From a virus (taxonomy: Duplodnaviria > Caudoviricetes), in the IMG/VR virus record IMGVR_UViG_3300005095_000141, positions 1-60,538 of that record: a DNA stretch of 60,538 nt; one strand, 5' to 3'. The notes beneath the pieces were generated by a model. That model saw only the letters and a list, made by a program, of their open reading frames with translations. It had not been told where the DNA came from and did not search any database. Shown piece by piece: positions 1,081 through 59,436 of the stretch; within the stretch, counting starts at the first letter, position 1, and the number at the start of each line of letters is the position of its first letter. The position numbers were made by a program, and so were the translations under genes.

Positions 1081-1099
1081 TGTGCTCTGCATATACTGG
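1081..1099 (+). promoter_or_regulatory. 19-bp viral motif copy (upstream of Ubl)
   Basis: TGTGCTCTG-CATAT-ACTGG. Confidence 0.7.
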
Positions 1100-1126
1100 A
1101 ATATGGAACAGTAGGAGGTGTATGGG

Positions 1127-1333
1127 TTGCCTAAAGTAGTAATAGCCGGGAACGAGTACGAGGTAACAGGTACTGGCGAGGAGATAGTTAAGTTTATACT
1201 GGAGAAGGCGGCTGAGCTTGGCTGGGCAAGTGTACGCATATTTGCCGATGGGAAGGTTGTACCCGAGGGCGATGTACAGGCGCTTGAGCAGGCTTCGACG
1301 ATTGAGGTTGTTAAGGCGGACGTAGCGGCTTAG
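1127..1333 (+). CDS. Small ubiquitin-like (beta-grasp) protein with C-terminus DVAA
   Basis: About 68 aa with a beta-beta-alpha-beta-beta pattern (KVVIAG-NEYEV-helix-VRIFADGKVV-TIEVVK) and a free small-residue tail; directly follows E2; GGAGGTG RBS before TTG 1127 (track start 1118). Confidence 0.7.
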   Translation: MPKVVIAGNEYEVTGTGEEIVKFILEKAAELGWASVRIFADGKVVPEGDVQALEQASTIEVVKADVAA

Positions 1334-1424
1334 CCGTGTATGTGGCGTAGGGCTTAGCTTAAAGGGTTTTTTCCACGTGCCTGTAATACCGGGAAAGCCG
1401 TGCACTGGGGGTGTCTGAGGCGGT

Positions 1425-1685
1425 GTGCCGCTGATGTATATGCCCCCGGTGTTCGGCCCCGACGGGTTGGAGGTGTATGCGTGTATGGATGGGGAGAAAA
1501 AGGTTATTGTCTGTGACCTGATTGAGAAGAGTGTTAAGGAGAAGGGAGCCGTTATTGATACTGAGTGGTGGGCTGAGCACGCTGTTTTTACGAAGAAGGA
1601 GCACGACGCAGTAGCTGTTGTAGCCGATAACGGGCTGATGCTTGTGATTATTGATGGGAAGGCTCGTGTCGGAAGGATACAGTAG
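1425..1685 (+). CDS. Hypothetical protein
   Basis: ORF with GAGGCGGTG RBS-like site and genome-typical codon usage. Confidence 0.65.
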   Translation: MPLMYMPPVFGPDGLEVYACMDGEKKVIVCDLIEKSVKEKGAVIDTEWWAEHAVFTKKEHDAVAVVADNGLMLVIIDGKARVGRIQ

Positions 1686-1763
1686 TATGTGTGGAGGGAA
1701 AGGCTTTTTTATTTGTCGTGCAGATTATTACCCAAACAAAAAGGTTAGGTCGGGTGGTAAGTT

Positions 1764-2003
1764 ATGAATTGGGTAGATGAGCTGTGTAAGATTAGGCGTA
1801 TAGCCCAGATGATGGTGGATGCGATAGACCGTGTAATGGATGATGATATGGATTGTTTGGATGAGCTACGGTATTTCCTGCACATGGCTGGTACCGATAT
1901 TGCGGATGCGATGAAGAGCGAGGGAGCGATACCGATTGCCGTGATGTTTGTGAACAGGAACTACGAGCACGTGATTAGATGTGTTGAGGGGCGTTTAGAG
2001 TAA
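1764..2003 (+). CDS. Hypothetical helical protein
   Basis: ORF with GGTGG RBS downstream of a BRE/TATA-like element (GAAAGGCTTTTTTATT, about 1698-1713). Confidence 0.7.
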   Translation: MNWVDELCKIRRIAQMMVDAIDRVMDDDMDCLDELRYFLHMAGTDIADAMKSEGAIPIAVMFVNRNYEHVIRCVEGRLE

Positions 2004-2045
2004 TGTGTTTTTTACTGTGCATCGGGTTCGAGTGGGGTGTGTGTA

Positions 2046-2870
2046 ATGGTTAGTCTGGCCGAGTTTGTACCGGAGCTGAAAAAGGTTCGTACAGGCAGTA
2101 CTGGTGGTGAAGAGAAGCTGGCCAAGGGAAGCGAGATATGCTTGTGGTTGCCCGGTAAGAAGGGCTGGTTTAAGACGAAGTATTGCTACAAGAGGAGTGT
2201 TGTGACGAGCTGGTTGCAGAAGGCGATACGTCGTGGTGACTGGATACGGGCGGCTTGGGCTGGTCTGATACTGGGGCAGAATGAGCCGTGGTATTTCTGG
2301 CACCGTGCACGTATTATTGCTGTTGAGGACTGCCTTGGTAGCCCGGAGCTGTTCGGCCTTGTGTATGGTATGATGCGTGAATTCGAGGCGCTTACCGGTT
2401 ACCGTATGTCGAAGGAGGATAAGAGGCAGTTGTTGAAGCTGGTTGACCTGGTATGTGCCAGTACCGGTGATGCCGACCTGTGCGATGGGTTGCACGAGTA
2501 TGTGAATAATTTGACCGGGTTTAAGGGGCCGGTGAAGAACTGGGATGCGCTGAGACTGATTGTTGCCGTTAGTGTGTTGCTGGCTAGGGCGAAACATGAC
2601 CGTAGTTCTGATGCGTTCCTTGACCTGATAACGGAGATTGTGAACCGTTTGAGCGATGGACGTGTGGATGAGGATAACGAGGCTGTTAGGTGGTTGGAGG
2701 AGCTGAGTAGGCCGCCTGAGTATGTGTTTGATATGCATGTGCTTGGTAAGGCGGCCCGTGTTAGCTGGGTTGAGAGTAGCCGTACCGTGAATAATACTGA
2801 GGAGTACGAGGAGTTCCGTGGGCTGTGGGAGCGGCTGTACCGTGCTGTTGGTGCGGCTGATGATTACTAG
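2046..2870 (+). CDS. Stand-alone MgsA/RarA C-terminal-like helical domain protein (no ATPase domain)
   Basis: SWLQKAIRRGD...A...FWHRARIIAVED and PEYVFDMH resemble the RarA/MgsA post-AAA domain; no Walker motifs. Confidence 0.6.
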   Translation: MVSLAEFVPELKKVRTGSTGGEEKLAKGSEICLWLPGKKGWFKTKYCYKRSVVTSWLQKAIRRGDWIRAAWAGLILGQNEPWYFWHRARIIAVEDCLGSPELFGLVYGMMREFEALTGYRMSKEDKRQLLKLVDLVCASTGDADLCDGLHEYVNNLTGFKGPVKNWDALRLIVAVSVLLARAKHDRSSDAFLDLITEIVNRLSDGRVDEDNEAVRWLEELSRPPEYVFDMHVLGKAARVSWVESSRTVNNTEEYEEFRGLWERLYRAVGAADDY

Positions 2871-3165
2871 GCTTGTTTTTCCCGTTGTGTGTATGTGTTT
2901 GTGGTTTGCCCCGGTACTGGGTGTTCTGGCCGGTGCTGGTGTTTTTTGTACGGTTTCTGTCTTTGTTATACTGTATATTGTACGGTATGGTATGGTATGG
3001 TTTCCGTATATTGTACGGTTGTTTCTGTTCTGTGCTGGTTTGCGATGTGTTTGTGATGGTGTTTTTTCGTGGGCCGGACGTTTTTTGTGGGGGTGTGTTT
3101 CTGGTGTTTGACTTAGGTGTTTTACCGGTTGGCTGTGTCTGTACTGGTTATTTGAGTGGTGTGGA
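2871..3165. repeat. T-rich non-coding region with (TATGG)3 and TATATTGTACGG direct repeats
   Basis: Repeats are visible at about 2945-3020; the track ORFs here are low-complexity. Confidence 0.6.
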
Positions 3166-3182
3166 TAAGAAACTTTTTAAAC
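3165..3182 (+). promoter_or_regulatory. Canonical archaeal BRE-TATA promoter
   Basis: ATAAGAAACTTTTTAAA upstream of an operon start. Confidence 0.6.
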
Positions 3183-3235
3183 CGTCACGAGAACATTTAC
3201 ACAACAAACAAAATGTAACGGGTAGGTGTATAGGA

Positions 3236-3547
3236 TTGGGTAGGAGGAAGAGTAGGCGGGTTGTCCCCGCACCTGTACCGTACTGGAAAAGAATAGCTTT
3301 TTTAGAAGACCGTGCTACGCAGATAAGGTTTGTCCGGTTCAGCCTGATAAGGAAGGATGAGAAGGCTGGACGTTACCGCTACAGTGTACAGGTGTTCGAT
3401 GCCGATAATGGCAGGCCCGGACGGGTGTACGTTGTTAGTGACCGTAGGCTGGACAGGTTCGGCCTGTGGAACGCGGTGCAGTGCTATTTCAGATTCGGCG
3501 ATACCGAGATGGATGGGGTAAGGGTTGAGAAGGAGGTGTGGAAGTAA
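3236..3547 (+). CDS. Hypothetical basic protein
   Basis: Coding-like 3' half of track ORF 2873..3547; probable TTG start after GGTAGGTG; stop overlaps the next start (TAATG). Confidence 0.65.
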   Translation: MGRRKSRRVVPAPVPYWKRIAFLEDRATQIRFVRFSLIRKDEKAGRYRYSVQVFDADNGRPGRVYVVSDRRLDRFGLWNAVQCYFRFGDTEMDGVRVEKEVWK

Positions 3548-4179
3548 TGATTGGGACTGAGGAGATTAGGTCGTCGGTTGAGAGCGGTGGGTACTGGAGT
3601 TTTACCGAGGATGAGCGCTGGGGTAGATGCCGTGAAGTAGTTGTTACCGAGTATGGGGAGGCGGTGTGTAAGGATACTGGTGAGGTGCTTGGGTATGCTT
3701 GGGATGGTAGTCCGTCTGCGGTTGGGGATGATACTGGTGTTGTGTTTAGTGATGTGAAGCCGATTAGCGGTAAGACTGTCTGGTATAGTGTGTCTGCTGA
3801 GCTGAAGAAGAAGGTTGGTGTTGCCGAGGAACTGCTTGGGGAGAGGCTGGACTGGTTTGTACCGGTGCTTGCAGAGTATGGTGGCTGGGCACGCCGTAAT
3901 AGTGGTGGGCTTGGCATGTTTGCCCGTGTTGTGTCTGGGAAGACGGTAGCGTTGTTCAGCCTGTACTACCGGTACCTTGAGGGTAAGATGTCGTACAGCG
4001 AGTTTAGGGAGAAGGCACGCAGTATCGGGTTCCTCTATATTGATAAGAGGTTGCTGTACAAGTTTAGGCTGTGGCATGACGGTGTCAGCCCCGATGATGC
4101 TGTATTGTTTGATAAGAAGGCCGGCGTGTATAGGCGTGTGTCTGAGATAAGGTTTGAGGACGTGTTTCCCCGTAAGTAG
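3547..4179 (+). CDS. TFIIB/TFB-type zinc-ribbon protein
   Basis: CREVVVTEYGEAVCKDTGEVLG resembles the crenarchaeal TFB ribbon (GE-x-[IV]-C-x-x-TGEVL); no recognisable cyclin repeats. Confidence 0.55.
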   Translation: MIGTEEIRSSVESGGYWSFTEDERWGRCREVVVTEYGEAVCKDTGEVLGYAWDGSPSAVGDDTGVVFSDVKPISGKTVWYSVSAELKKKVGVAEELLGERLDWFVPVLAEYGGWARRNSGGLGMFARVVSGKTVALFSLYYRYLEGKMSYSEFREKARSIGFLYIDKRLLYKFRLWHDGVSPDDAVLFDKKAGVYRRVSEIRFEDVFPRK

Positions 4180-4246
4180 AGTGTGTTTTTCCGGCTGTGT
4201 TTCTGTGCTTTGCTTATACTGGACTTGTACTGTACCGGGTGGTTGT

Positions 4247-4726
4247 ATGGTGGCTAGGTCTTCTGTACTGGAGTATGAGGGTATTGTGGGCGGCGGTGTT
4301 ATTAATGCTGTTTTTAGCCCTAGGAAGGGACGGTTTGCGAAGCCGTTCGATGCCGTGCCGAGCTATAACGGTGCTGTTGTGCTGAAGTACCGGTTGTTGC
4401 CGGGCAAGTATGTTGTTGTTAATGCCCGTGTTGAGGGTGACCCGTTTGTAAGTGGTGGTGCCATAGAGATTGTGTTTGAGGGTATGCGTGTACTGGGTGC
4501 TGGAGTGTTAGAGAATGGTGGCACCGTGTCTGTTGTGTATGATACTGGTGTGAAGCAGGTGTTTCTACGGCATATTGTAAGGGCGGCTACCCGTACCTAT
4601 AGTTCGCTGGAGCATGTGTTCCGCTGGCTGTGCAGACGATACGATACCGATAGCTGGCAGTGGCTGGTTGACCTTGTATTCGACAATACCGGTAAGAAGG
4701 TTGTTGTAGAGATTAGAGAGGAGTGA
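4247..4726 (+). CDS. Hypothetical protein
   Basis: ATG after GGTGG and a copy of the 19-bp motif. Confidence 0.7.
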   Translation: MVARSSVLEYEGIVGGGVINAVFSPRKGRFAKPFDAVPSYNGAVVLKYRLLPGKYVVVNARVEGDPFVSGGAIEIVFEGMRVLGAGVLENGGTVSVVYDTGVKQVFLRHIVRAATRTYSSLEHVFRWLCRRYDTDSWQWLVDLVFDNTGKKVVVEIREE

Positions 4727-4732
4727 CTTGTT

Positions 4733-5161
4733 ATGGATAAGAAGGACAGGGAGCGTATTAGGCGTGTACTGGGTGTTGAACCCGGTGATAGGAGCCGTGT
4801 GTTCACGCCTAGGGCTAGACAGTATGTGCTGAACAGGTTTGGCCGTGGTACGCCGCTTAGCCTTGACCGTGAAGGGATATGTGACCTGTGCGGCCGTAAG
4901 GATGTTGTGTTCCCGAATACCGGGGAGATACCGGTGTGCCGTAGGCATCTGGGCAAGTTTGTACGTATTGGGCAGTTGAAGGCGCTTGGACGTGTGCAGG
5001 TGGTTACGAATTTCTATGGGCGGATACGGTGTTTTTTCTGTGGCAGGGCTGATCCGGTGATGTATTTTGTTAGGCCGAGGAAGCTGTGTATTAGGTGTAT
5101 GTGGTATGTGCTTGGCAGGCAGAGCAAGAGGCTTAGTATTGACGGTACCCGTATAACGTAG
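4733..5161 (+). CDS. Zinc-finger protein
   Basis: CDLC..CRRH and CFFC..CIRC pairs. Confidence 0.7.
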   Translation: MDKKDRERIRRVLGVEPGDRSRVFTPRARQYVLNRFGRGTPLSLDREGICDLCGRKDVVFPNTGEIPVCRRHLGKFVRIGQLKALGRVQVVTNFYGRIRCFFCGRADPVMYFVRPRKLCIRCMWYVLGRQSKRLSIDGTRIT

Positions 5162-5166
5162 CCGGG

Positions 5167-5544
5167 GTGGTGTGCTTGACTGATGCGTATAGTCTTGACA
5201 GGGATGATACTGAGCATTTGAAGAGTAAGGTTGCGGAGTACTGCGGTAAGCTGTGTAGTGGGCTGGTTGACCCGGCTGGTTTTGCCTTGTACCGGTGGTT
5301 TGCTGGTTTGCTTGGGACTAGGTGTGCCTGTATTGACGATGTTGTGCATGCCTATGTTGTTGTTTTGTGTGGCGATACCTATGTCTTTGTTGACAGTGAC
5401 TGTGATACCGATTTTGATGTTGCTGTGCGTTCTGCTATTGATAAGTGTGGGTGTGCGTATGAATGTTTTGCGGACGAGATGCGTTCTGCAGGCTTTATAC
5501 CGGTTCGTGTGCTGGATGTTGTGCGTGTAGATGCTGGGCGGTAG
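5167..5544 (+). CDS. Hypothetical Cys-rich protein
   Basis: ORF within an operon. Confidence 0.6.
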   Translation: MVCLTDAYSLDRDDTEHLKSKVAEYCGKLCSGLVDPAGFALYRWFAGLLGTRCACIDDVVHAYVVVLCGDTYVFVDSDCDTDFDVAVRSAIDKCGCAYECFADEMRSAGFIPVRVLDVVRVDAGR

Positions 5545-5577
5545 GGTGTCTGTGCTTTGATTCTAACGGTGAATAAA

Positions 5578-5949
5578 ATGTCGGGTAAGAGCCTGTACCG
5601 TAGGGTTGCGGAGTATATTGTTCGTGATAGTTTTTTACAGGTTGGCCCTGAAAGCAGTATGAGAAAAGTAGCTGAGTGGCTTGAGAACGACGGCAAGGTC
5701 GTCCATACCGGTGCATGGGTGGCTGGAGAGATTGCTGTGCTGGTGCATGAGTGCGGTAAGAAGATGGGTGTTATTACCGAGGAGGGCGGAGAGGCTGTTA
5801 CTGTTACGTTTCCGAACAAGGGGTTAGCAGAGATACCGGTGTATGACAGTGACAGGCTGGTGGATTTTGTTGAGCGCATACTGATGGTTGTGAAGCTGTT
5901 CTATGGTGACGAGATGATTAAGTGTATTGAGAAGGAGGTGAACATGTGA
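5578..5949 (+). CDS. Hypothetical protein
   Basis: ATG 27 nt after the start of the motif at 5551. Confidence 0.7.
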   Translation: MSGKSLYRRVAEYIVRDSFLQVGPESSMRKVAEWLENDGKVVHTGAWVAGEIAVLVHECGKKMGVITEEGGEAVTVTFPNKGLAEIPVYDSDRLVDFVERILMVVKLFYGDEMIKCIEKEVNM

Positions 5950-6263
5950 TGGCTGGTCTGTTCGTACCGGAGGATGTTGTGTTTGAAACTGTTGTTGTAG
6001 AGCACGGTGTTGCTGACGTGTACGGTGTTGTCCATACCGATAAGGGAGTGTTTAAGCTACATATTGAGGGGTGTGCGGACGACTTTGTGGCTGACAGGGA
6101 TTCGATAAAGGTGTTACTGGAGCTTGCGGCTGAGAGGGCTGAGACGGAGGTTGACGGCATATACAGGTACTGTGCCGGCAGGTTTGATGTGAAGATTACT
6201 ATGCTTGAAGGTGTTGATTGGCGTATAAGAATTGCTGAGTCTTGTAAGGGAGGTGGTAAGTGA
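5949..6263 (+). CDS. Hypothetical protein
   Basis: GGAGGTG RBS and TGATG coupling. Confidence 0.7.
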   Translation: MAGLFVPEDVVFETVVVEHGVADVYGVVHTDKGVFKLHIEGCADDFVADRDSIKVLLELAAERAETEVDGIYRYCAGRFDVKITMLEGVDWRIRIAESCKGGGK

Positions 6264-6463
6264 TGGGTAGGGCGTGTCCTGTGTGTGGCCGTGGAATGTT
6301 TAGCAGGAAGAAGCTGTTGGAGCATATTAAGAGGGAGCACCCGGCGTACTACCATAAGTGGATAGCGAATAGCCCGAGATACAGTGTCTGCCATTCACTA
6401 ATGATTGCGAAGAAGCGTGGCAGGGATGTTAAGATTCCGTCGCAGTGCAGGGGTGGTGCTTGA
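6263..6463 (+). CDS. C2H2 zinc-finger protein
   Basis: CPVCGRGMFSRKKLLEHIKREH. Confidence 0.8.
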   Translation: MGRACPVCGRGMFSRKKLLEHIKREHPAYYHKWIANSPRYSVCHSLMIAKKRGRDVKIPSQCRGGA

Positions 6464-6639
6464 TGAAGAGTGTTATTGGAATTGTACCGTATGTGAAGCT
6501 TGAGGATATGCTTAGGAAGAGGGACTTCGAGGTTGCCAAGTACGTTGTCGAGGTGATGTGTAGGGGTAGTGTTAGTGTAGAAGGGGGCAATATTGTGTGT
6601 AAGGAGAAGGACAGGGTTGTTACGATAGAGCTGTACTAG
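6463..6639 (+). CDS. Hypothetical protein
   Basis: TGATG coupling. Confidence 0.6.
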   Translation: MKSVIGIVPYVKLEDMLRKRDFEVAKYVVEVMCRGSVSVEGGNIVCKEKDRVVTIELY

Positions 6640-6645
6640 TGGTGG

Positions 6646-6894
6646 TTGTGGATGAGTATTAGGGCTTACGATATACTGTCTAGGATTGACTTGGAGGGCG
6701 TTGGTAAGGCTAAGCAGGTTATTGACGCTATTAGGGAGTTGCTTAGGGCTAGCTGTGCCAGTGTAGAGGAGTTTGACAATGGCTTTGACTGCCTGATACC
6801 GGATGAGGAGACTGTGCTTGATAATGGCGATGTTGTTGTTGCCCGGTGGGTTGTACTGCGTGTAATGTATGGTGTTGAGAAGAAGGAGGTGTAG
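6646..6894 (+). CDS. Hypothetical protein
   Basis: ORF within an operon. Confidence 0.6.
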   Translation: MWMSIRAYDILSRIDLEGVGKAKQVIDAIRELLRASCASVEEFDNGFDCLIPDEETVLDNGDVVVARWVVLRVMYGVEKKEV

Positions 6895-6898
6895 CTGT

Positions 6899-7219
6899 GT
6901 GTCTAAGACTAGGATTGTGTGCTGGGCAGGCGGTAGGGAGACCGTTGTTGATGATGCTGAGAACTGTATATGGGAGATTGCCAGGCTCGGTAACGGCAGG
7001 ATGTACGTTGTGGTAGGCGATGTGAAGCTACCGGTTGATGTTAACGAGGCTGTTAAGAAGATGATGGTTGAGAAGGGCTTGGTCATACAGTCCCGTATGT
7101 GGCTGGCGCACCGCTACAGCAATGATATTGAGGATGAGGAGTGGAGAAGCGAGGTGTTCAGCAGGATTATGAGGGCGCTTAGAGAGTACGAGATGATGTG
7201 GTTCGACGGGAAGAGATGA
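6899..7219 (+). CDS. Hypothetical protein
   Basis: GGAGGTG RBS and GTG start. Confidence 0.6.
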   Translation: MSKTRIVCWAGGRETVVDDAENCIWEIARLGNGRMYVVVGDVKLPVDVNEAVKKMMVEKGLVIQSRMWLAHRYSNDIEDEEWRSEVFSRIMRALREYEMMWFDGKR

Positions 7220-7410
7220 CCGTGTATTTTTGTTTTTGTTACTGTGGTGATAAGGAGTTTTTGGGTCTTGAAGCTGTTAGTGCTGATACCGATTCTGACG
7301 CTGTTAGCAGGGCTGTTGAGAAGGTTCGTGGATACGGCGATGTATGTGATGAACGTATTGTGTGCGAGTGTGTTGATAAGGACTATTTTGTTGTGACGGC
7401 TAGGCTTTGA
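7216..7410 (+). CDS. Hypothetical protein
   Basis: ATGA overlap with the previous gene. Confidence 0.55.
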   Translation: MTVYFCFCYCGDKEFLGLEAVSADTDSDAVSRAVEKVRGYGDVCDERIVCECVDKDYFVVTARL

Positions 7411-7440
7411 TGTGCTTTGATTTTACCGGGGGTGGTTGTT

Positions 7441-7632
7441 ATGGATGGTGTTGATTCACGGTGTGTGGAGGAGTGTTGTTCTGCCGGGTTCGGGCTTAGT
7501 GACTGTGTTTTTATGTGTGCTGGTGTATTAGAGTATTTGGGTACGGACTGGTATGGAACGGTGCATTACCGGGTTGGTGTTGCCCGTATTAGTCTTAGGC
7601 GAGACGTGTTTGCAGGTGGTGGTACGTGGTGA
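7441..7632 (+). CDS. Small Cys-rich protein (twin Cx3C-like)
   Basis: CVEEC..CVFMC; follows the motif at 7411. Confidence 0.55.
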   Translation: MDGVDSRCVEECCSAGFGLSDCVFMCAGVLEYLGTDWYGTVHYRVGVARISLRRDVFAGGGTW

Positions 7633-8018
7633 ACGTGGGTAAGGCTGTGTGTGTGTATAGGAGTTTGTATGAGATGTGGCGTTGTATAGGAGAGGAGCTG
7701 TGTGGTTTGTTTGCAGATGCGCTACGCAGTGTTGTACCGGATATTAAGTGTGCGGATGACAGTTATGGAGATATTATGCTGGATAGTGATGCTAGGAGTG
7801 CCTTTGTAATGCTTGAGCATAACGGAGAGATTGTCAGTATTGAGGATGTTATTAAGAAGGTGTTCCCCGAGCTTAGAGGCTATGAGGGGATAATGTGCGA
7901 CGTGTTCTTTACCGAGGAGGAGGCCGAGAAGGCTGTGCAGGTGCTTGAAAGGATTAGGAACGAGGAGTTCGACCGTGTTATTGCTAAGTGTGTTGAGCGT
8001 GCAGGGAATGTGCTTTGA
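7626..8018 (+). CDS. Hypothetical protein
   Basis: ORF within an operon. Confidence 0.65.
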   Translation: MVNVGKAVCVYRSLYEMWRCIGEELCGLFADALRSVVPDIKCADDSYGDIMLDSDARSAFVMLEHNGEIVSIEDVIKKVFPELRGYEGIMCDVFFTEEEAEKAVQVLERIRNEEFDRVIAKCVERAGNVL

Positions 8019-8027
8019 ATAATACGG
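8009..8027 (+). promoter_or_regulatory. 19-bp viral motif copy (upstream of PCNA); other copies at 4204, 5551, 7411, 10615, 15228, 21438, 22462, 34995, 36361 and 50935
   Basis: TGTGCTTTG-AATAA-TACGG; fixed spacing in all copies. Confidence 0.75.
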
Positions 8028-8038
8028 AGGTGTACTGG

Positions 8039-8779
8039 ATGCCTGGTCTGAGTATTGCAGGGGATGAGCTTAAGGGTTTGTTCAAGCTGTTAAAGGAGCT
8101 TGGTGTTAGTGTGGCTGAGTTCAGGTTTGAGAATGGCCGTGTGTCGCTGTTCGGTATGGATGCCAGTAGGGTGTCTGCTGTTAAGTGGTATGCTGACGGT
8201 GTTGACGGCGAGGGTGTCTTTGCGATACCGATTGACCGTGTTGTTAAGTGGCTTGGACGCGTAGGTAAGAGCGAGGTGTCAGTGGAGTTTAAGGAGAACC
8301 GTGCTGTATTCCGTAGCGGTAGGCGGAGACTGTATGTGCCGTACAGTGCATCTAGCAATGAGTTCGAGGATGTTGCGCTGGAGCAGATTATTGAGAGCGT
8401 TGATAATGCGGCGCTCAGGGTTACCGGTAAGGAGTATAAGCAGGTTGTTGACACAGTGGTTGACTACCCGGAGGCGACGTTCGAGTTCCATACCGGTACT
8501 GATGAGAGGCTTGGCATTGTTGCTGACCAGTACAAGGGATACGTGATTGTTAGGGGAGAGGACGAGAGCGGCGTTAAGGAGGAAGCTGTGTTTGGATTGG
8601 AAGAGATTAACGACGAGTTCAGCATTAAGTTTTCGCCGGAGTACCTGAAGATGGGTAAGTACGTTGTTGATGCATGCAGTGTTGTTGATATAAGGTTTGA
8701 CGAGAACAAGCCGCTGGTAATGGTAGGCAGTACCGTTGGAGATAACAAGCTGTTCTACGTGGTGGCGCCCCGTGCCTGA
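8039..8779 (+). CDS. pcn: PCNA sliding clamp
   Basis: About 246 aa; GMDASRV, FSPEYL, ENKPL and the C-terminal VAPR are archaeal PCNA hallmarks. Confidence 0.9.
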   Translation: MPGLSIAGDELKGLFKLLKELGVSVAEFRFENGRVSLFGMDASRVSAVKWYADGVDGEGVFAIPIDRVVKWLGRVGKSEVSVEFKENRAVFRSGRRRLYVPYSASSNEFEDVALEQIIESVDNAALRVTGKEYKQVVDTVVDYPEATFEFHTGTDERLGIVADQYKGYVIVRGEDESGVKEEAVFGLEEINDEFSIKFSPEYLKMGKYVVDACSVVDIRFDENKPLVMVGSTVGDNKLFYVVAPRA

Positions 8780-9002
8780 TACCGGTGTTAAGCTTTTGAA
8801 TGCTAAGTGTTTTTCTGATAAGAAAGGGCGTAAAGTGTATGTTGCTGTGGCTGTTAAGGGAGAAGAGTTCAGCATTGTAATTGCAGGTGATAAGGGCGAT
8901 ATGGATGTCGGCGAGTGTATGGTTGTTGATGATATTGGGGAAGCTGTTATAAGGTATGTTGTTGATACGTATAAACATGGTGTTGGTGGTGCGGGTGCTT
9001 AA
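8772..9002 (+). CDS. Hypothetical protein
   Basis: Coupled ORF. Confidence 0.5.
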   Translation: MPDTGVKLLNAKCFSDKKGRKVYVAVAVKGEEFSIVIAGDKGDMDVGECMVVDDIGEAVIRYVVDTYKHGVGGAGA

Positions 9003-9222
9003 CAAGTACGACGTGCTTATAGTTGTGATTATAGCTGTTACCGTTATTGCGGCGCTTCTAATAGTGTTTAAGGGCAACGATGAGCTGGCGGCTGGATTGA
9101 TAACGGGTATTATTGGTACTGTGCTTGGGTATCTTACCGGTAAGAACAGCGGGGAGGAGACGGCTAGGCGCTTGCTAATGGGTTCTGGAGGTAAGGATGA
9201 GAAGAGAGGTGATGATAAGTGA
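8989..9222 (+). CDS. Small 2-TM membrane protein (holin-like)
   Basis: Two hydrophobic helices (VLIVVIIAVTVIAALLIVF; LAAGLITGIIGTVLGYL) and a charged tail. Confidence 0.6.
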   Translation: MRVLNKYDVLIVVIIAVTVIAALLIVFKGNDELAAGLITGIIGTVLGYLTGKNSGEETARRLLMGSGGKDEKRGDDK

Positions 9223-9809
9223 AAGACCGTGCTATGATTAACCACCGTGTTTTGACCCGTATATACAAGATGCTTAGGCAGAGACGTGGTGTTGACGCTG
9301 TAGAGTTTGCCCGTTCGCTGTGGTTTGCCTATGCACGTTTTACTGTGTTGAGGCAGTCTGCACGTATGCAGTTGAAACGTATGCTTGACGCTATTAGTGG
9401 CGGTAAGCCTGTTGTTAGCAAGGTTCTGCGTGAAGCGCTTAGTATTGTTACTGCGCCTGAGCTACCGAGCGGTGCCGTATCGTATGTTCAGAAGAAGTTT
9501 AACGAGGAGCCGACGCTTAGTAATTTAGCGGCTATTGTACTGGCAGGTCAGAGGCCGGACGTGGAGTTTAAGCTGTACAGGGACGCTGTTGACACTGTTA
9601 TTGAGAAGTACGGTGCGCCTGCACGTTATTTGCTTGGAGACGATACTGTTCCGACTGATGTTGTTATAGCTACGCCGGAGACATGGGTGCTTGTACGGAA
9701 CTGGAAGTATGTTGTGGTTGAAAGACCTCGCAAGAAGAAGAGTAGGAAGAAGAAGAAAAAGACCGGCAGTACCGGTGCTGAGGAGGTGACTGATAGTGGC
9801 TCTGCCTAA
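9219..9809 (+). CDS. Hypothetical protein with a Lys-rich tail
   Basis: GAGGTG RBS; PRKKKSRKKKKK. Confidence 0.7.
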   Translation: MKDRAMINHRVLTRIYKMLRQRRGVDAVEFARSLWFAYARFTVLRQSARMQLKRMLDAISGGKPVVSKVLREALSIVTAPELPSGAVSYVQKKFNEEPTLSNLAAIVLAGQRPDVEFKLYRDAVDTVIEKYGAPARYLLGDDTVPTDVVIATPETWVLVRNWKYVVVERPRKKKSRKKKKKTGSTGAEEVTDSGSA

Positions 9810-9913
9810 GGATAAGGTTGTTGTTGTGGGGGAGGGTAAGAGGATTGTTTTTATACGTGGGTGTCCCGACGGTTCTTGTAGGCGGGACGGTAAGCGGGTG
9901 TTTTTTGTTTCTG

Positions 9914-10612
9914 ATGTTTTTGCTTGTTGAACTGTATGGTGGAGTGCCTGTTGTAGGTTCTGGTCTTGGGACGCTAGGGGTTGTAGTACCGTTTAGTGAT
10001 GGTTTCTACGGTGTTTCTGCCGGGCATGTATTGGCAGATGTTTTTACCGGTAGTTCGTATGACGTGTATTTGCCGGGAGATGGACGTGTAGGATATACCG
10101 TGTACTATACTGGTTTGAGACGGGAGAAGCGTTTTCTTGGAGTGTTTTACCGGTTCTTTGCATGGCTGTGCAATGTGTTTGGGAGTGGAGACCCTATAAG
10201 CCTTGGAAATACCGTTGATTACGGAGTGTTTAGGATTGACGGCAGGGTTGGTGTTAGGCCGTTCGTTGTTGGTGATGGAAGGCGGTTCTACGACCTTAGA
10301 GAGAGACGTATTGTAGGCATGGTGTTTGCAGGGGCTGTTGGTTTGTCTGGCAAGGTGTTTTTCTACGTGCCTTACCGGAGGTTTGCCGATATGTATGGCG
10401 GTGTGCTTAGTGGTTTTGAAGAATATGTGCCTGTATCTGGAGATGTTGTAAGGTTCTGCGGTGTTAGTGGTTGTCACGAGGGAGTTGTGCTTGATACTGA
10501 TGTATGGGTTAGGATACGTTTTTACGGCGGTGTGTCTGCATTGTTTAGCGGTGTAGGGGCTGTTAGCGGGGAGTTCGAGATAGGTGATAGTGGGGCGATT
10601 GTTTTTACCTAG
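9914..10612 (+). CDS. Trypsin-like serine protease (the true 5' end may be the small ORF 9796..9930 via a frameshift)
   Basis: GTLG...SAGHVL...DYGVF...GDSG catalytic triad motifs. Confidence 0.75.
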   Translation: MFLLVELYGGVPVVGSGLGTLGVVVPFSDGFYGVSAGHVLADVFTGSSYDVYLPGDGRVGYTVYYTGLRREKRFLGVFYRFFAWLCNVFGSGDPISLGNTVDYGVFRIDGRVGVRPFVVGDGRRFYDLRERRIVGMVFAGAVGLSGKVFFYVPYRRFADMYGGVLSGFEEYVPVSGDVVRFCGVSGCHEGVVLDTDVWVRIRFYGGVSALFSGVGAVSGEFEIGDSGAIVFT

Positions 10613-10664
10613 TATGTGCTTTGTATATAACGGAGGTACTAGTAACTAGTATGGGCGCTAGGAA

Positions 10665-10856: not shown

Positions 10857-10895
10857 GACCTGTTCTTGCAATACCGTTATTTAGGTGCGTGTATT

Positions 10896-49424: not shown

Positions 49425-50314
49425 CGCTGACCGTGCTTCTTACCGGTAGCGAGGGTGTTCTTGGGAAGAGAATAAAGGAACTGTTGCCGAAGATGATTGA
49501 TGCGAGGATAATAGGTCTTGACATAAAGGAGACTGCCGATATTGTGGGTGATATACGGAACTATGATGTACTTGTGTCCGCTATGAAAACATATAGACCG
49601 GATGTTGTACTGCATTTTGCGGCTTTGACAAGCCCGATAGAGAGTACGTACCGTGAAATAGAGTATTATGACGTGAACATGATTGGTACTGCGAAGCTTG
49701 TGAAGATAGTGCCGAGGGATGCCCTGTTTATATTTGCGAGTAGCTGTGCAGTATATGGGAATGCGTACGATGTTCTTAAGAGACCGGTGATTCTTAGCGA
49801 TGCATGGAGGTTTACGCCGCTAAGCCCGTATGGTCTGAGCAAGCTGTTTGCAGAGAAAATAATACGTAGCCATAGAGACGATGCGGTTATACTGAGGTTT
49901 GGAAACGTGTATAGCCCGTATGACGATAAGTATGTGTTCTGGAAGATGTTTAGCAACAAGGTGTTCGTTCTTAACGACCCTGATGCTGTAAGGGATTTTG
50001 TAAGTGTGGATGACCTGATACGGCTGATTGTGAAGATAATACGTAGATGGGATGCGGGCGAATACGTTGGAGGTACGTATAATGTTGGTGGTGAACCGCT
50101 TAAGATGGCTGATGTGGTAGAGATTGCTAGGAAAAAGGCTGGATGGCCGGAGAAAGTGGTTATTGGCAATGGTTTGAAGCCTGGAGAGTTTAAGCGCATG
50201 GTTCTGAACATTACAGCTACTAGGGATGCATTTGACTGGTCGCCTATTGACAGGCTGGAAAACTATATAGATGTTCTAGACCGATACTTTAGAATGAGGT
50301 CTGCGGGGAGATAA
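49421..50314 (+). CDS. NAD-dependent epimerase (GalE-like)
   Basis: LTGSEGVLG, HFAA, ASSCAVYG, YGLSK, RFGNVY and RDFV. Confidence 0.9.
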   Translation: MTLTVLLTGSEGVLGKRIKELLPKMIDARIIGLDIKETADIVGDIRNYDVLVSAMKTYRPDVVLHFAALTSPIESTYREIEYYDVNMIGTAKLVKIVPRDALFIFASSCAVYGNAYDVLKRPVILSDAWRFTPLSPYGLSKLFAEKIIRSHRDDAVILRFGNVYSPYDDKYVFWKMFSNKVFVLNDPDAVRDFVSVDDLIRLIVKIIRRWDAGEYVGGTYNVGGEPLKMADVVEIARKKAGWPEKVVIGNGLKPGEFKRMVLNITATRDAFDWSPIDRLENYIDVLDRYFRMRSAGR

Positions 50315-50677: not shown

Positions 50678-50944
50678 ATGAGTAAGAGGCGTTTTTTCAC
50701 ACGCTATATAGATGAGAAGTGGCTTAGGACAGCGCATTTTCTGCATGGTTTTTTGACAGCACTTGCAATGCATTTCTACGGGATAGGAGTAGCTTTGTTT
50801 ATGTTTGTACAGTTTATGAGCTATGAGGCAATAGAGTATATGAAGATACGTGATACGTTTTACCCCGAAGTACTGGAATGGGATATGGGGTTTGCGCTTG
50901 GAATAGTTGTGCTGATTATACTGAGGCTGTTTTCTGTGCTTTGA
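50678..50944 (+). CDS. Small membrane protein
   Basis: 2-3 hydrophobic segments. Confidence 0.65.
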   Translation: MSKRRFFTRYIDEKWLRTAHFLHGFLTALAMHFYGIGVALFMFVQFMSYEAIEYMKIRDTFYPEVLEWDMGFALGIVVLIILRLFSVL

Positions 50945-50961
50945 ATTAACCGGTGGATAAA

Positions 50962-53945: not shown

Positions 53946-54398
53946 TTGAAGACCCCGCTTGATGATGTTAAGGATACGGCTAAACGTGTTATTGCTGAAG
54001 GCGTCGCGTCTGGAAAGAAGTTTGAAGAGATAGCGCAGGAGCTTAGCGAGATGCTAGGTAAGAAGATAACGCCTAGTATGGTGCGGTATTTCTACTACAG
54101 AGAGTTTGGGGATGTTGTTTCTGATACGCCTAGAAGCAGTACCGATGTTGTTGACGATGAAGGAGAATTTGATTTGGAGAAGGAATTGATATGGCTGTAC
54201 CGTGTGCAGAAGAAACGTATTAGACGGCTGGTTAGACTGGAGGAAGAAGCTGGACTGCCACTGCCTGATACGAGCAAGAACATTGATATTGCAAGCAGGA
54301 TACTGGAGAAGCTTGGAAAAATAGGAAGTGCAGAGGATGAGAACATTATTGAGAAGGTGCTTGAGGCGCTGGAGTCTGATACTGGTACTGAGCAGTAG
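53946..54398 (+). CDS. terS: Putative terminase small subunit
   Basis: N-terminal HTH-like segment; coupled to the large subunit. Confidence 0.6.
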   Translation: MKTPLDDVKDTAKRVIAEGVASGKKFEEIAQELSEMLGKKITPSMVRYFYYREFGDVVSDTPRSSTDVVDDEGEFDLEKELIWLYRVQKKRIRRLVRLEEEAGLPLPDTSKNIDIASRILEKLGKIGSAEDENIIEKVLEALESDTGTEQ

Positions 54399-55831
54399 TG
54401 GTGTTTGTTTTGAACAAGCTTGTTGAGAAGGCGCTTAGGAATTTCGACAAGTTTGTAGCGGCTTTGTTTGTAGGGCCGGACGGCAAGCCGTTGCGGCTGA
54501 CGTATTACCAGAAAGAGTTTATTATGAAGGCGCTTACGAGGAAGCCGGGCAAGTTTATTTTCTTGGCGGCGACCCGTAGCGGTAAGACGACCAGTACAGC
54601 CGTGCTTGCAATACTGTATGGATTGCTGTACCCGAGAGAAGAGATTGTTGTTGTTGCGCCCACGTTTAGACAGGCAAACATACTGTTTGGAAGGATACGA
54701 GAATTCATTATGTCCAGCCCGATACTGATGCGCATGATAGACAGGGAGAAGAGCTTTAGGCACGACCTGATACACTTTAAGAACAAGACTGTACTGAGAG
54801 CGTTGTCTGCAGGTAACCCTGAGGCGTTGCTTGGCTTCGGTGCTACTGTGCTGATTGTTGATGAGGCTGGTAGCATACCGGACAATATTTTCAGAACCCG
54901 TATATTGAGGATGATTATGAGTAACCCGCTTGGAAGGAAGCCTGTGCTGATACTGCTTGGTACGCCGCACGTACACAACTATATGTGGAGGCTGTGGGTA
55001 GAAGGTGATGAGAAAGAAGTGTTTAAGATGCGTGTTACTTGGAGGGACGCTGTTAAGGCTGGAATAATGAGGAAGGATGAGGTGGAGTTTGCCCGTAAGA
55101 TGCTTAGCGAGACAGAGTTTAGGATGTGGTATGAGGCGGAGTTCGTGAATACTGAGGGCAAGTTCTTCGATATTGATGATATTAGGAAGTGTGCTGTTGC
55201 CCGTGGAATAGTTGGTGCGAAGCCTTTGCCTAGGAGACCGGGGCATATACGGATACTGAGTGTTGATGTTGCACGGCTGGGGGATGACGAGACAGCCGCT
55301 GTTATTGTTGAGGTGCCGAAGAACTTTACGCCGGAGGAAGGCATAGTAGAAGTGCTTGGAGTGTACCGGCGCAAGAAGATGTACTTGAATGAGACAATAG
55401 GCTGGGTACTGCACTTGGCAGAGGAATGGCTGGTAGATTATGTAGCTGTTGACGCTATAGGAATGGGCGTCGGGGTCTGCGACGTGCTTAGGGAGAAGCT
55501 TGGTTTTTACCGTGTTGTTGATGTTTCGGCGGCTGGTAGGGAGCGTATTGATATGTTTATGCTGTTTAGGCGTCTTGCTAGGGAGAGGCGTATTATTTTG
55601 CCTGAGAATGAAGATATAGTTAGGCAGTTCTGGTCTTATGAGGTTCGCTATGGCGGTAATGGTGATGTGCGCATTATTAAGAAGGCCGGGTACCGTGATG
55701 ATGTTGCCGATGCTATTATTTATGGTGTTTGGGTGGGCTACAAGTACAGTAACTACGCTGGCTATACCGTGCATGTGTCTGACAAGATAGCCAATATTGT
55801 TGAGCGCATGTCTGCTAGTGGAAGCCTGTGA
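54398..55831 (+). CDS. terL: Terminase large subunit
   Basis: YQ, RSGKTT, VAPTFRQA, IVDEAG, GTP, YEAEF, VDVARLGDD and DDVADA. Confidence 0.95.
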   Translation: MVFVLNKLVEKALRNFDKFVAALFVGPDGKPLRLTYYQKEFIMKALTRKPGKFIFLAATRSGKTTSTAVLAILYGLLYPREEIVVVAPTFRQANILFGRIREFIMSSPILMRMIDREKSFRHDLIHFKNKTVLRALSAGNPEALLGFGATVLIVDEAGSIPDNIFRTRILRMIMSNPLGRKPVLILLGTPHVHNYMWRLWVEGDEKEVFKMRVTWRDAVKAGIMRKDEVEFARKMLSETEFRMWYEAEFVNTEGKFFDIDDIRKCAVARGIVGAKPLPRRPGHIRILSVDVARLGDDETAAVIVEVPKNFTPEEGIVEVLGVYRRKKMYLNETIGWVLHLAEEWLVDYVAVDAIGMGVGVCDVLREKLGFYRVVDVSAAGRERIDMFMLFRRLARERRIILPENEDIVRQFWSYEVRYGGNGDVRIIKKAGYRDDVADAIIYGVWVGYKYSNYAGYTVHVSDKIANIVERMSASGSL

Positions 55832-55835
55832 CGGC

Positions 55836-55854
55836 TGTGCTTTGAGAATACCGG
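55836..55854 (+). promoter_or_regulatory. 19-bp viral motif copy (upstream of JAB)
   Basis: TGTGCTTTG-AGAAT-ACCGG. Confidence 0.75.
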
Positions 55855-57679: not shown

Positions 57680-58066
57680 ATGCCGTTTACTGGTAGGAGT
57701 GCGTTGAACCGTATTGTTGGTTTGCTTGAGGGTGTGCTTCGTGTTGCTAGTGATGTTGTAAGCGGTAGTTCTGGCAGTGTTTCTACTGGTGATGCTGAGG
57801 CTGTTGTTGCTAGTGTTGATTTGTCTGGCTGTGTGCGTGGCGTTGTGTTGGTTGCTAATACTGGTGGTAATGGTGTGGATGTTGTTGTGTCTGCTGTTGT
57901 TCCCGGCGGTAGTGTTTCGTACCAGTTGTTTAGCGGTAGTGTTGCGGCTGGTGCTGTACAGCGTGTGGATGTTGATTTTCCCTGTAAGGTCAGTGTGTTT
58001 GCTAAGAATAGTACGAGTGGTGCGGGCAGTACTGTTGTTGTTGACTGGGTTGGCTGGAAAGCCTAG
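57680..58066 (+). CDS. Small beta-rich protein (possibly structural)
   Basis: ATG after GGTGG; G/V/S-rich. Confidence 0.5.
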   Translation: MPFTGRSALNRIVGLLEGVLRVASDVVSGSSGSVSTGDAEAVVASVDLSGCVRGVVLVANTGGNGVDVVVSAVVPGGSVSYQLFSGSVAAGAVQRVDVDFPCKVSVFAKNSTSGAGSTVVVDWVGWKA

Positions 58067-58160
58067 CACTGTTTTTTAGCCTGTACTGAACAATGTGTGC
58101 CGGGCAATGTACAGGCGCCGGACACAGACCACCATATAGAATACAGGAGAGGAGAACACA

Positions 58161-58511
58161 ATGCCCAGACACATACACACAATAATAACAGAGAAACTAT
58201 ACTGGGTAATAGACAGTATTAGGGGCCGGTACGGTGTTAGTAGTGGTGCTTTGCTAGAGTTTGTTTTCTGGGCTTGCTGGGAGGATAGTGGTTGTAGGCG
58301 GCGTGTTTTGGACTGGCTTGCTGGCCGTGGTGTTCGTACTGGTAGTACTGGTGGTGCTGGCGATACTGGTTCTGGTTCGGCTGGTTCTGCTGGTGGTGTG
58401 GATAGTACCGGTAATGCTGGTGGTGGTGGTGCTTCGTCTTTTGCTGAGTGGTTGGTGCGTGGGTGGGGTGACCCGTTGAACCAGTTGTTGTTTGAGCTTG
58501 GCGGTGACTAG
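58161..58511 (+). CDS. Putative RHH-like regulator
   Basis: MPRHIHTIITEKLYWVIDSIRGRYGVSSGALLE has a beta-alpha-alpha pattern; GGAGAGGAG RBS. Confidence 0.5.
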   Translation: MPRHIHTIITEKLYWVIDSIRGRYGVSSGALLEFVFWACWEDSGCRRRVLDWLAGRGVRTGSTGGAGDTGSGSAGSAGGVDSTGNAGGGGASSFAEWLVRGWGDPLNQLLFELGGD

Positions 58512-58523
58512 GCTGGTTTGTGC

Positions 58524-58542
58524 TGTGCTTTGTTTTTACTGG
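58524..58542 (+). promoter_or_regulatory. 19-bp viral motif copy (upstream of E1)
   Basis: TGTGCTTTG-TTTTT-ACTGG. Confidence 0.75.
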
Positions 58543-58570
58543 TATTTACTGGGTTTGTGGGTGGTGTGTT

Positions 58571-59416
58571 GTGTCTGGTCGGGATTTGCTGTGGTTTCTT
58601 AGGCGGGCGGCGGCTGGAGGGTCTGTTTCTGGCAGTACTGGTTCTGTGGCTGGTGATTCTAGGTCTGCTGGTGCAGACGATGCTGGCGTTGCTGTTAATA
58701 CTGGTACTGGTGGTTCTGGTGCTGGGTTTGTGTTTCCTGGTGTGCGTGCTGTTGTGTTTGGGTTGGGTGGTGTTGGTTCGTGGCTTGTGTTTCTTGCTGG
58801 TGGTTACCGGTTGTTTGGTGGTTTTGTATTGGTTGATGGTGATGTGTGGGAGCCGGTGAATAGTAATAGGTTGTGGTTGTACCCGTTTGGGGGGTTGTTG
58901 GGCCGGTGTGTTGCTGGTGGCCGGTGTTTTAAGGCTGGTTTGGCTGGTGGGTGGCTTGTGCGGCGTGCTGGCTATACTGGTGGCCGGGTAAGGGTTGTTC
59001 CCCGGTATGTGCGTGGGGTGGATGATGTGCGTGCTGTTTTGTCCCGTTACTGTACCGGTACCGGCGGTGACGGTGCTGGTTATCGTTACCCGTGTGTTGT
59101 GTTTGACTGTGTTGATTCGCCGCGTGTGTCTGCTGATGTTCGGTATGCTGGTGTTGGTGCTGGGTTGCCTGTTGTTAGTCTTCATTTTGACGGTGGTAGT
59201 GTTACTGGTGAGGTGTTTTTGCCGGGGTCTGGGGCTGGTGTTTTTAGTGTTGGTGGTGCTCGTGGTGGGTATGTGGCTGGTAGTGTTGCGGGGTCTAGTG
59301 TGTTGGCGGCTTGGCTTGGCGTGGTGCTTGCTTACCGTGTTCTTACTGGGGCTGTTGGTGGCTATGTGTTGGTTGGTGGTGATACTGGGTCTGGGCTTCG
59401 TGTTTTTGGCTTGTAG
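58571..59416 (+). CDS. E1/ThiF-family ubiquitin-like activating enzyme
   Basis: VFGLGGVGS (GxGxxG), VDGDVWEPVNSNR (D-x-D..NxNR), the conserved K and FDCVD. Confidence 0.85.
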   Translation: MSGRDLLWFLRRAAAGGSVSGSTGSVAGDSRSAGADDAGVAVNTGTGGSGAGFVFPGVRAVVFGLGGVGSWLVFLAGGYRLFGGFVLVDGDVWEPVNSNRLWLYPFGGLLGRCVAGGRCFKAGLAGGWLVRRAGYTGGRVRVVPRYVRGVDDVRAVLSRYCTGTGGDGAGYRYPCVVFDCVDSPRVSADVRYAGVGAGLPVVSLHFDGGSVTGEVFLPGSGAGVFSVGGARGGYVAGSVAGSSVLAAWLGVVLAYRVLTGAVGGYVLVGGDTGSGLRVFGL

Positions 59417-59417
59417 T

Positions 59418-59436
59418 TGTGCTTTGTTTTTACCGG
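59418..59436 (+). promoter_or_regulatory. 19-bp viral motif copy (upstream of the unknown ORF-E2 pair)
   Basis: TGTGCTTTG-TTTTT-ACCGG. Confidence 0.75.

Follow-up and report, generated by a model that had tools for sequence, protein, structure and literature searches.

A 19-bp motif of fixed spacing, in which the nine-base block TGTGCTTTG is followed by five AT-rich bases and the ending AHYGG, stands at 15 gene boundaries on the + strand of the virus genome IMGVR_UViG_3300005095_000141 (IMG/VR), and a promoter class specific to this virus is the best single explanation for it. The window analyzed here is the whole stretch of 60,538 bp, a complete tailed-virus genome with a 91-bp terminal repeat and ~90 open reading frames (ORFs), all of which lie on the + strand and together span 98% of the window. 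Judged from the DNA sequence, the motif would be the core of a promoter class private to the virus, heading ~15 + strand units and probably one antisense unit; we assign this explanation a probability of roughly 0.55. A preliminary description of the DNA had also put forward a virus-specific promoter class. The motif is found at almost every operon start, and its geometry departs from the rule of host TBP, TFB, and TATA box plus TFB recognition element (BRE) that is obeyed by relatives of the virus and by another group of sites within this genome.

Results and Discussion

Motif Definition and Distribution

The strict pattern TGTGCTTTG-N5-AHYGG matches 12 times on the + strand and never on the minus strand, versus 0.01 expected from dinucleotide shuffles (0 of 100 shuffles attained 12). 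Three variants with one mismatch each, at 1081 (block TGTGCTCTG), 8009 (T at position 15), and 22462 (AG end), bring the total to 15 sites (Table 1), and the fifteen-site motif of the preliminary description is therefore real. The block TGTGCTTTG is the commonest 9-mer of the genome, with exactly 15 copies, all on the + strand; 14 are at the listed sites and the fifteenth is at 36489. Alignment of the 15 sites gives the consensus (C/A)TGTGCTTTG-A-W-T-A-T-A-C-Y-G-G, with only a weak T bias further upstream and no conservation past position 19. Within positions 10–17 (AWTATACY), T12, T14, and A15 are nearly fixed and many copies have C or G inside, position 17 is C or T in all 15 sites, and the GG at positions 18–19 is kept in 14 of them, even where the Shine-Dalgarno sequence sits further downstream.

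A weight matrix scores the 15 sites at 23.5–30.7 bits, a circular result as the matrix was built from those sites; the next + strand scores are 17.4 (36489), 13.4, and 12.1 bits, leaving a clear gap, and the best score in 50 shuffles averaged 10.5 bits with a peak of 21.4 bits. On the minus strand there is one full copy (22.8 bits, 16112→16094), and the next best score is 10.3 bits. The earlier statement that every copy lies on the + strand at a gene boundary thus holds for the 15 listed sites and not for the minus-strand copy or for the weaker in-gene copy at 36489. Equal occurrence in mid-gene or on the minus strand had been named as grounds for abandoning the promoter reading; a search for it returned these two copies against 15 boundary sites.

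Relative to the end of the preceding stop codon, 14 of the sites begin at −10 to +24 nt and the remaining one at +85; three of the 14 supply that codon themselves as TTTG-A. All 15 precede the next start codon and fall within boundary zones which, generously drawn, occupy at most 12% of the genome. The units that they head cover small early-like genes as well as the modules for tail, head, replication, sugar modification, and terminase. Intervals of 12.5 and 14.6 kb between sites span the head/tail and replication/sugar blocks, and six copies lie inside the 10-kb stretch of small orphan genes. As this coverage is not selective, the motif looks like the general promoter of the genome, heading units of every functional class across nearly its whole length, and the proposal of a regulon linking PCNA, replication, and ubiquitin-like (Ubl) genes has to be given up. 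Enrichment of GTGCTT and TGTGC inside genes was considered as a sign of half-motifs and rejected, as these words are frame-0 Val-Leu codon pairs.

Position Relative to Shine-Dalgarno Sequences and AT Boxes

In a heuristic scan, a stretch matching GGAGGTGA over 4 nt or more lies 4–10 nt before the chosen start of 82 of the 90 ORFs; the genes are led by Shine-Dalgarno sequences and are not leaderless. At six compact sites (5551, 7411, 8009, 15228, 34995, and 50935) the Shine-Dalgarno sequence begins at motif position 18–21, on the motif's own GG, and the ATG lies at motif position 28–31. The distances of 27–30 nt given in the preliminary description for the ATGs at 5578, 7441, 8039, 15256, 35023, and 50962 are correct, but the view derived from them, of an element near the TATA position driving leaderless mRNAs, is contradicted by the prevalence of Shine-Dalgarno sequences and by the motif GG that begins them at these six sites.

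Two of the compact-site starts are backed by homology, that of the PCNA-like clamp (8009) and that of the tail chaperone (15228), for which alignments to three relatives start at ORF residues 1–7. Transcription starting ~22–25 nt past the TATA-like part, at about position 40, would hence begin within the genes of the compact sites, and at five further sites it would begin past strong Shine-Dalgarno sequences; since a start near position 40 is misplaced, the TATA-like part is no normal TATA box for the adjacent genes. Transcription begins no later than position 18 unless the motif itself forms part of the transcript. The earlier remark that the motif is not a canonical BRE-TATA element is in agreement with this analysis, as GCTTTG is not purine rich and the TATA-to-start distance, judged from start codons and Shine-Dalgarno sequences, does not fit.

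The genome also has a second, ordinary promoter class, consisting of runs of at least 8 A/T ~21–28 nt before Shine-Dalgarno sequences. Of 88 runs of this length, seven end 21–27 nt before a Shine-Dalgarno sequence (~0.8 expected per bin; neighboring bins contain 0 and 3), and the boxes before the capsid, portal, and ParB-like genes are 8/8 A/T (Table 1). Their spacing implies that ordinary TATA promoters in this virus put the start at the Shine-Dalgarno sequence, an arrangement which the motif class does not fit. A relative, the virus record G003, has the sequence AAC-ATTTATATA 21–22 nt before GGTGA in two of five copies. The mRNAs of this virus group seem to start with the Shine-Dalgarno sequence; by analogy with the AT-box genes, initiation in the motif class would take place at the Y-GG end. 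Of the 15 sites, 13 lack a canonical TATA box at −26.

Proposed Mode of Action

In the promoter that we propose, TGTGCTTTG (about −17 to −9) would act as the specificity block, AWTATAC (about −8 to −2) as an easily melted region, and Y-G-G as the initiator, its pyrimidine at −1 and its two Gs at +1 and +2; the 5′ ends of the mRNAs would then coincide with the Shine-Dalgarno sequence or precede it by a few bases. Runs of five or six T stop archaeal RNA polymerase. T5+ runs are found within 35 nt upstream at six of the 15 sites, versus 0.63 expected from the 73 such runs of the genome; they would end the preceding unit, and argue for re-initiation at the motif. At 34995 the T6 run, ending 1 nt before the motif, leaves no room for another promoter. 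The minus-strand copy, a candidate antisense start, fits a self-sufficient DNA signal on an otherwise gene-free strand.

The motif would most likely be read by the host RNA polymerase, guided by an unrecognized factor in place of TBP/TFB at their usual −26 geometry. This reader is favored because the virus shows no polymerase or general transcription factor from any known family. Pfam scans covering 89 of the 90 ORFs gave no RNA_pol, TBP, TFB, or sigma domain, and six-frame searches gave no match to the TBP and TFB families or to multisubunit RNA polymerase domains (with valid controls for the latter). The factor may be of host or viral origin; among small orphan proteins the candidates are a C2H2 zinc-finger-like protein (6260–6463) and a ribbon-helix-helix (RHH)-like protein (36008–36370), the only DNA-binding leads, both of which are sub-threshold matches. 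Searches with the orphan proteins gave no match in PDB sequences (three proteins) and one weak match in PADLOC (nine proteins), and PHROGs searches with ten proteins identified only the clamp.

Several observations weigh against a virus-private promoter. The scans described above found no viral reading factor, and dependence on such a factor would be hard to reconcile in timing with the six copies that precede early-looking genes. T5+ runs are lacking upstream of nine of the 15 sites. The pile-up of Shine-Dalgarno sequences at position 18 could arise from genome compaction alone. At two sites (21438 and 22462) the Shine-Dalgarno sequence is preceded by an ordinary AT box at canonical spacing, and the motif, lying between TATA box and start, would there sit where an operator is expected; at 21438, TTTTTATT makes a canonical TATA reading possible. 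The relatives do not have the motif, and there is therefore no phylogenetic footprint for its function. A host promoter class of this form may also exist, and we infer initiation at the motif, the exact start point, and the reading protein from the layout of the sites.

Alternative Explanations

The motif might instead act in RNA, as a linear, unstructured element in polycistronic + strand transcripts that is bound by a viral or host RNA-binding protein or endoribonuclease; cleavage there could yield units with their 5′ ends at the Shine-Dalgarno sequence, or the element could adjust how the following gene is translated. With one-stranded genes, a promoter and a sense-RNA signal predict equal strand bias, and the position of the motif, always after a stop codon and directly before the Shine-Dalgarno sequence, suits an RNA element, as does the failure to find a viral transcription factor; the canonical TATA boxes elsewhere in the genome could supply the transcripts. 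However, the 15 sites share no conserved secondary structure (mean folding-energy z of −0.18, 0.09, and 0.13 in three window settings), and a conserved stem-loop, as in RNase III-like hairpin processing sites, is not seen. The T5–T6 runs directly upstream in six sites would halt archaeal RNA polymerase before it reached the motif, and the full minus-strand copy would be silent unless that strand is transcribed. An AT-rich, TATA-like core with Y-GG also appears typical of melting and initiation, and not of known RNA-protein sites. We consider an RNA role unlikely, though it fares best among the alternatives.

Somewhat less probable again is that an unrecognized virus-encoded RNA polymerase or sigma-like specificity factor reads the motif as a compact −17 to +2 promoter, without TBP/TFB geometry. 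If true, this would be the first such case for an archaeal virus, as viruses of archaea are held to lack an RNA polymerase of their own and to rely on TATA/BRE promoters with host TBP and TFB (PMC5569661). The six-frame search for T7-type polymerases (PF00940) gave no match, but its control matched nowhere and the search is uninformative. The largest unassigned ORF encodes 509 aa.

A decidedly doubtful third possibility is that the motif combines a standard archaeal core promoter with flanking sequence specific to the virus: AWTATAC would be the TATA box bound by TBP and TGTGCTTTG would lie at the BRE bound by TFB; transcription would start ~22–25 nt downstream, near position 40, and the first gene at the compact sites would be expressed by read-through only. 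A TATA-like core with a conserved upstream block is the layout of the virus-specific consensus sequences described for archaeal viruses (PMC11065993), which are held to depend on host TBP and TFB (PMC5569661), and an ATG at position 42–44 in three sites would suit leaderless mRNAs. Against this, the start codon in six of the 15 sites, two of them homology backed, is at position 23–31, before the predicted transcription start, and strong Shine-Dalgarno sequences at positions 25–40 (1081, 4204, 21438, 22462, and 36361) would be left outside the mRNA. The BRE is described as purine rich and the TATA box as TTTAWATA (PMC11065993), whereas the invariant GCTTTG before the TATA-like part is T-rich. 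Positions 36–45 show neither conservation nor an initiator signal, and the genuine AT boxes lie 21–27 nt from the Shine-Dalgarno sequence, compared with 0–8 nt for the motif.

The chances are slight that the motif is a DNA signal unrelated to initiation, either a repressor operator between promoter and gene or a strand-specific site for nicking, priming, replication, or packaging. Strand-specific nick sites occur in some phages, and the present virus has genes of its own for a primase large-subunit domain, an ATPase, and PolB. Archaeal repressor sites are usually located between TATA box and start (PMC5569661), as is the motif at 21438 and 22462; the other 13 sites, though, have no AT box at the right upstream distance. 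The site is asymmetric, which seems unlike the dimer sites of RHH or helix-turn-helix repressors, and priming or nicking sites need not keep to gene boundaries or module borders. Bacterial sigma-70 promoters were rejected, as 22 sites with −35 and −10 hexamers spaced by 16–18 bp were found in positions 1–20000 versus 24.7 ± 4.6 in shuffles, none of them at the motif.

Comparison with Known Promoter Systems

T7-like phage promoters are compact conserved blocks of ~19–23 bp comprising a specificity part, an AT-rich part, and initiating Gs. The motif likewise is a one-stranded compact block in a genome with genes running one way, and would span −17 to +2 if transcription starts at G18. In contrast to T7-like phages, no single-subunit RNA polymerase gene was detected by Pfam in 89 of the 90 ORFs, and the host is probably an archaeon. 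Consensus sequences of archaeal viruses (SIRV2 early genes and others) similarly consist of one extended motif with a TATA-like core before many genes and differ between related viruses (PMC11065993); two relatives of the present virus, G003 and G004, have repeats of that kind. Those described contain a canonical TTTAWATA and a purine-rich BRE, normally spaced from the start (PMC11065993). In the present virus the TATA-like part is weaker, the block before it is rich in T, and the motif ends 0–1 nt before the Shine-Dalgarno sequence at six sites. The GTC motif downstream of the TATA box in SIRV1 and SIRV2 is also a virus-specific cis element near the start, but it comprises three bases and accompanies a canonical TATA/BRE (PMC5569661), compared with a conserved block of 19–20 bp in the present virus.

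There is a superficial likeness to the T4 MotA box and to the bacterial extended −10 element, in that TGCTTTG resembles the MotA-box core and TG plus TATAMY an extended −10. The MotA box is, however, ~12 bp from the −10 element, compared with 2 bp here, the TG is one base out of register, and a bacterial start ~7 nt past the hexamer would cut the Shine-Dalgarno sequence of the compact sites. The T7-type promoter is thus the closest system in geometry and the virus-specific BRE/TATA consensus the closest in kind, and the motif lacks defining features of both: the TATA-to-start distance and BRE composition of the latter, and the cognate polymerase gene of the former. We classify the motif as a virus-private promoter consensus, a kind known from other archaeal viruses, in a new variant. 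Should mapped 5′ ends bear out transcription starts at the motif, they would point to an initiation factor or polymerase not known before, and the motif would provide a compact orthogonal promoter for archaeal genetics; even as an RNA signal, it would give a ready operon map for an uncultivated virus.

Distribution among Relatives and in Databases

A profile of the large terminase subunit (TerL) identified relatives at 15 IMG/VR loci, 49 metagenome loci, and one genome locus, the last in a metagenome-assembled genome (MAG) titled uncultured Thermococci archaeon (TerL 27% identity); a TerL of 61% identity is encoded on a 75.6-kb ENA contig (P0002), and another of the nearest TerL proteins on an 87-kb contig (P0008). 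No exact copy of the motif is present in any of five related virus records (G003–G007, TerL 38–45% identity), and none of the 49 metagenome loci, which include pieces of 60–84% identity, has a match above 12 bits. The nearest relatives are short: L178 (84% identity over 166 residues) covers no syntenic motif site, and L186 (70%) and L157 (60%) cover one syntenic junction each, with the motif absent at both. At its junction L186 has a T6 run followed by TTCTATATATAG, a canonical TATA box. The promoter repeat of G003 (L028–L030) is canonical, AAC-ATTTATATA-T in five copies, and G004 (L031–L033) likewise has TTCGAAA-ACTATATATAC three times, both on the reverse strand. A consensus repeated within one virus is thus found here, in 15 copies, and the relatives have other repeats. 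G004 also contains a 54-bp tandem array of six copies that include TTTAATTTTGG.

An IMG/VR scan with TGTGCTTTGNNTATACYGG returned two loci, each with a single copy of the 9-mer in the whole record; a scan with TGTGCTTTGNNNNTACYGG returned at least 117 stretches, with one match each among the matches listed, and these are chance matches. None of the other IMG/VR contigs among the matches listed has the motif in multiple copies, which together with its absence from related viruses agrees with a virus-specific class. No close PolB relatives were found in IMG/VR. A scan for a host regulon in 133 genomes of the phylum of the MAG gave 11 matches compared with 13 for the reversed control, with at most two per genome, and the MAG itself has three one-mismatch matches compared with four in the control. 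Full-text literature matches to TGTGCTTTG are primers and aptamers among the matches listed, and no description of the motif was found in the literature on archaeal-virus promoter motifs and virus-encoded RNA polymerases, supplements not being covered.

Table 1. Motif copies, AT boxes, and selected genes in the window (motif positions are counted from the first base of each copy)
Feature	Position	Strand	Comment
Motif	1081–1099	+	Variant 9-mer TGTGCTCTG; 2 nt past stop of the ORF spanning the terminal repeat; GGAGGTG from position 34, TTG at position 47 (small 68-aa gene)
Motif	4204–4222	+	T5 run 18 nt upstream; ATG 4247 at position 44
Motif	5551–5569	+	Compact; terminal GG opens Shine-Dalgarno GGTGA; ATG 5578 at position 28
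Motif	7411–7429	+	Compact; adjoins upstream TGA stop; ATG 7441 at position 31
Motif	8009–8027	+	Compact; T at position 15; 10-nt overlap with upstream stop; terminal GG opens GGAGGTG; ATG 8039 begins PCNA-like gene
Motif	10615–10633	+	T5 run upstream; followed by mini-ORF and ATG 10665; heads tail module
Motif	15228–15246	+	Compact; between tail-tube and tail-assembly-chaperone genes; ATG 15250 or 15256 at position 23 or 29
Motif	21438–21456	+	After portal gene; TTTTTATT directly upstream, 23 nt before Shine-Dalgarno
Motif	22462–22480	+	AG end; TATATTTTT directly upstream, 29 nt before Shine-Dalgarno; heads 12.5-kb head and tail-fiber block
Motif	34995–35013	+	Compact; T6 run stops 1 nt upstream; ATG 35023 at position 29
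Motif	36361–36379	+	Overlaps stop of RHH-like gene; heads ATPase-PriL-PolB replication and sugar block
Motif	50935–50953	+	Compact; overlaps upstream stop; ATG 50962 at position 28; heads block ending with small and large terminase subunits
Motif	55836–55854	+	4 nt past TerL stop; ATG 55879 at position 44
Motif	58524–58542	+	Before Gly/Val-rich ORF with sub-threshold ThiF/E1 match
Motif	59418–59436	+	Last copy; downstream ORF with weak coding signal
Weaker copy	36489–36507	+	Exact 9-mer, then GTATTACGGG; 17.4 bits; inside ATPase gene; status uncertain
Minus-strand copy	16094–16112	−	CTGTGCTCTGGCTATACTGG, with the TGTGCTCTG variant; 22.8 bits; within tape-measure-like gene
AT box	13733	+	Before gene 13775
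AT box	15708	+	Before tape-measure gene
AT box	19705	+	Before portal gene
AT box	23059	+	Before S-adenosylmethionine (AdoMet) decarboxylase gene
AT box	27117	+	Before capsid gene
AT box	31995	+	Before gene 32041
AT box	48594	+	Before ParB-like gene
PCNA-like clamp	8039–8779	+	E 0.002 to Sulfolobus PCNA3; phrog_947 at 7e-8
Tail tube	14230–15225	+	
Tape-measure-like gene	15754–17100	+	
Portal	19743–21425	+	
Prohead protease	24779–27148	+	
Capsid protein	27170–28369	+	53–54% identity to relatives
Archaeo-eukaryotic primase large-subunit domain protein (PriL)	37500–38552	+	
Family B DNA polymerase (PolB)	38458–40593	+	
Large terminase (TerL)	54398–55831	+	

Sequence Features near Individual Sites

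Between the motif at 10615 and the gene at 10665 lies a mini-ORF of five codons (10651–10668), whose stop overlaps the start of that gene (ATGA), suggesting translational coupling of the two. Degenerate motif-like sequences follow T6 runs at 1367–1392 (ACGTGCCTG-TAATACCGGG) and 1705–1731 (TCGTGCAGATTATTACCC), before the tiny genes 1425–1685 and 1764–2003; they may be decayed or weak copies and were left out of the count. Tandem repeats at 59436–59499 (GTATCTGTACT × 3.8, then GTATTG × 6.7) start at the last base of the motif at 59418 and contain three of the scarce ATC triplets, all in the context ATCTGTA; the region may be non-coding and act as an origin, a packaging site, or a pause site.

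Genome and Gene Content

GC skew is +0.2 to +0.5 across the whole window. An ORF of ~418 aa (60269–60538 joined to 1–1078) reads in frame through the 91-bp repeat; the "direct terminal repeat" is thus probably the mark of a genome that is circular or circularly permuted, not of physical ends. The host is likely archaeal, on the basis of the primase and clamp types, the lack of enrichment of sigma-70-type sites, and the canonical archaeal promoters of the relatives. PolB and TerL are only 22–27% identical to those of haloarchaeal tailed viruses and phages, among named phages.

The gene identities in the preliminary description stand for the replication operon (ATPase, PriL, and PolB). The replication genes of the virus comprise those for PolB, PriL, a RadA-like ATPase, an OB-fold protein, a Cas4-like nuclease, and the PCNA-like clamp. 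The identification of 8039–8779 as PCNA has weak to moderate support, the protein being of full length (246 aa, compared with 244–259 aa for PCNA chains). The Ubl system, in contrast, is reduced to a sub-threshold lead. A ubiquitin-like system is possible, from sequence matches, around the repeat junction, in a region comprising 58520–59416, 2–1078, and the 68-aa gene 1127–1333: the Gly/Val-rich ORF 58520–59416 has its ThiF/E1 match at E 3.7e-4 (20.2 bits versus a cut-off of 28.1), and the sole lead for ORF 2–1078 is an Atlas lead of 0.84 to an E2 of the type found in cyclic-oligonucleotide-based anti-phage signaling systems (CBASS). PADLOC detected no Ubl system in this region.

Directly 3′ of the capsid gene is a LAGLIDADG homing-endonuclease gene (28370–29253), preceded by two T5–T6 runs and its own TTTATATA box; it contains five of the 38 genomic ATC triplets, as a recent insertion would. 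The head module includes the AdoMet decarboxylase gene (23100–23531). A 7.5-kb sugar-modification block (42836–50314) encodes an aminotransferase, two epimerases/dehydratases, a methyltransferase, and two glycosyltransferases, with the ParB-like gene among them.

The + strand avoids ATC (38 copies, observed/expected 0.06) and CTC (42 copies, 0.11) in an extreme and strand-specific manner, and isoleucine codons in the window are ATC (3), ATA (671), and ATT (562). GATC occurs twice versus 82 times expected from synonymous shuffles, with GAT and GAG at normal levels. Avoidance of ATC and CTC is seen in none of the five relatives; GATC is nearly absent (observed/expected 0.01) from G004 and G007. 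The word TACYGG, which forms the 3′ end of the motif in seven of the 15 sites, occurs 248 times in the window, 241 of them in genes, in all three frames, versus 94 ± 7 upon synonymous shuffling. ACCGGT is present 82 times and TACCGGTA 28 times in the window, and CACCGGTG is present 54 times in the relative G007 (L034–L036).

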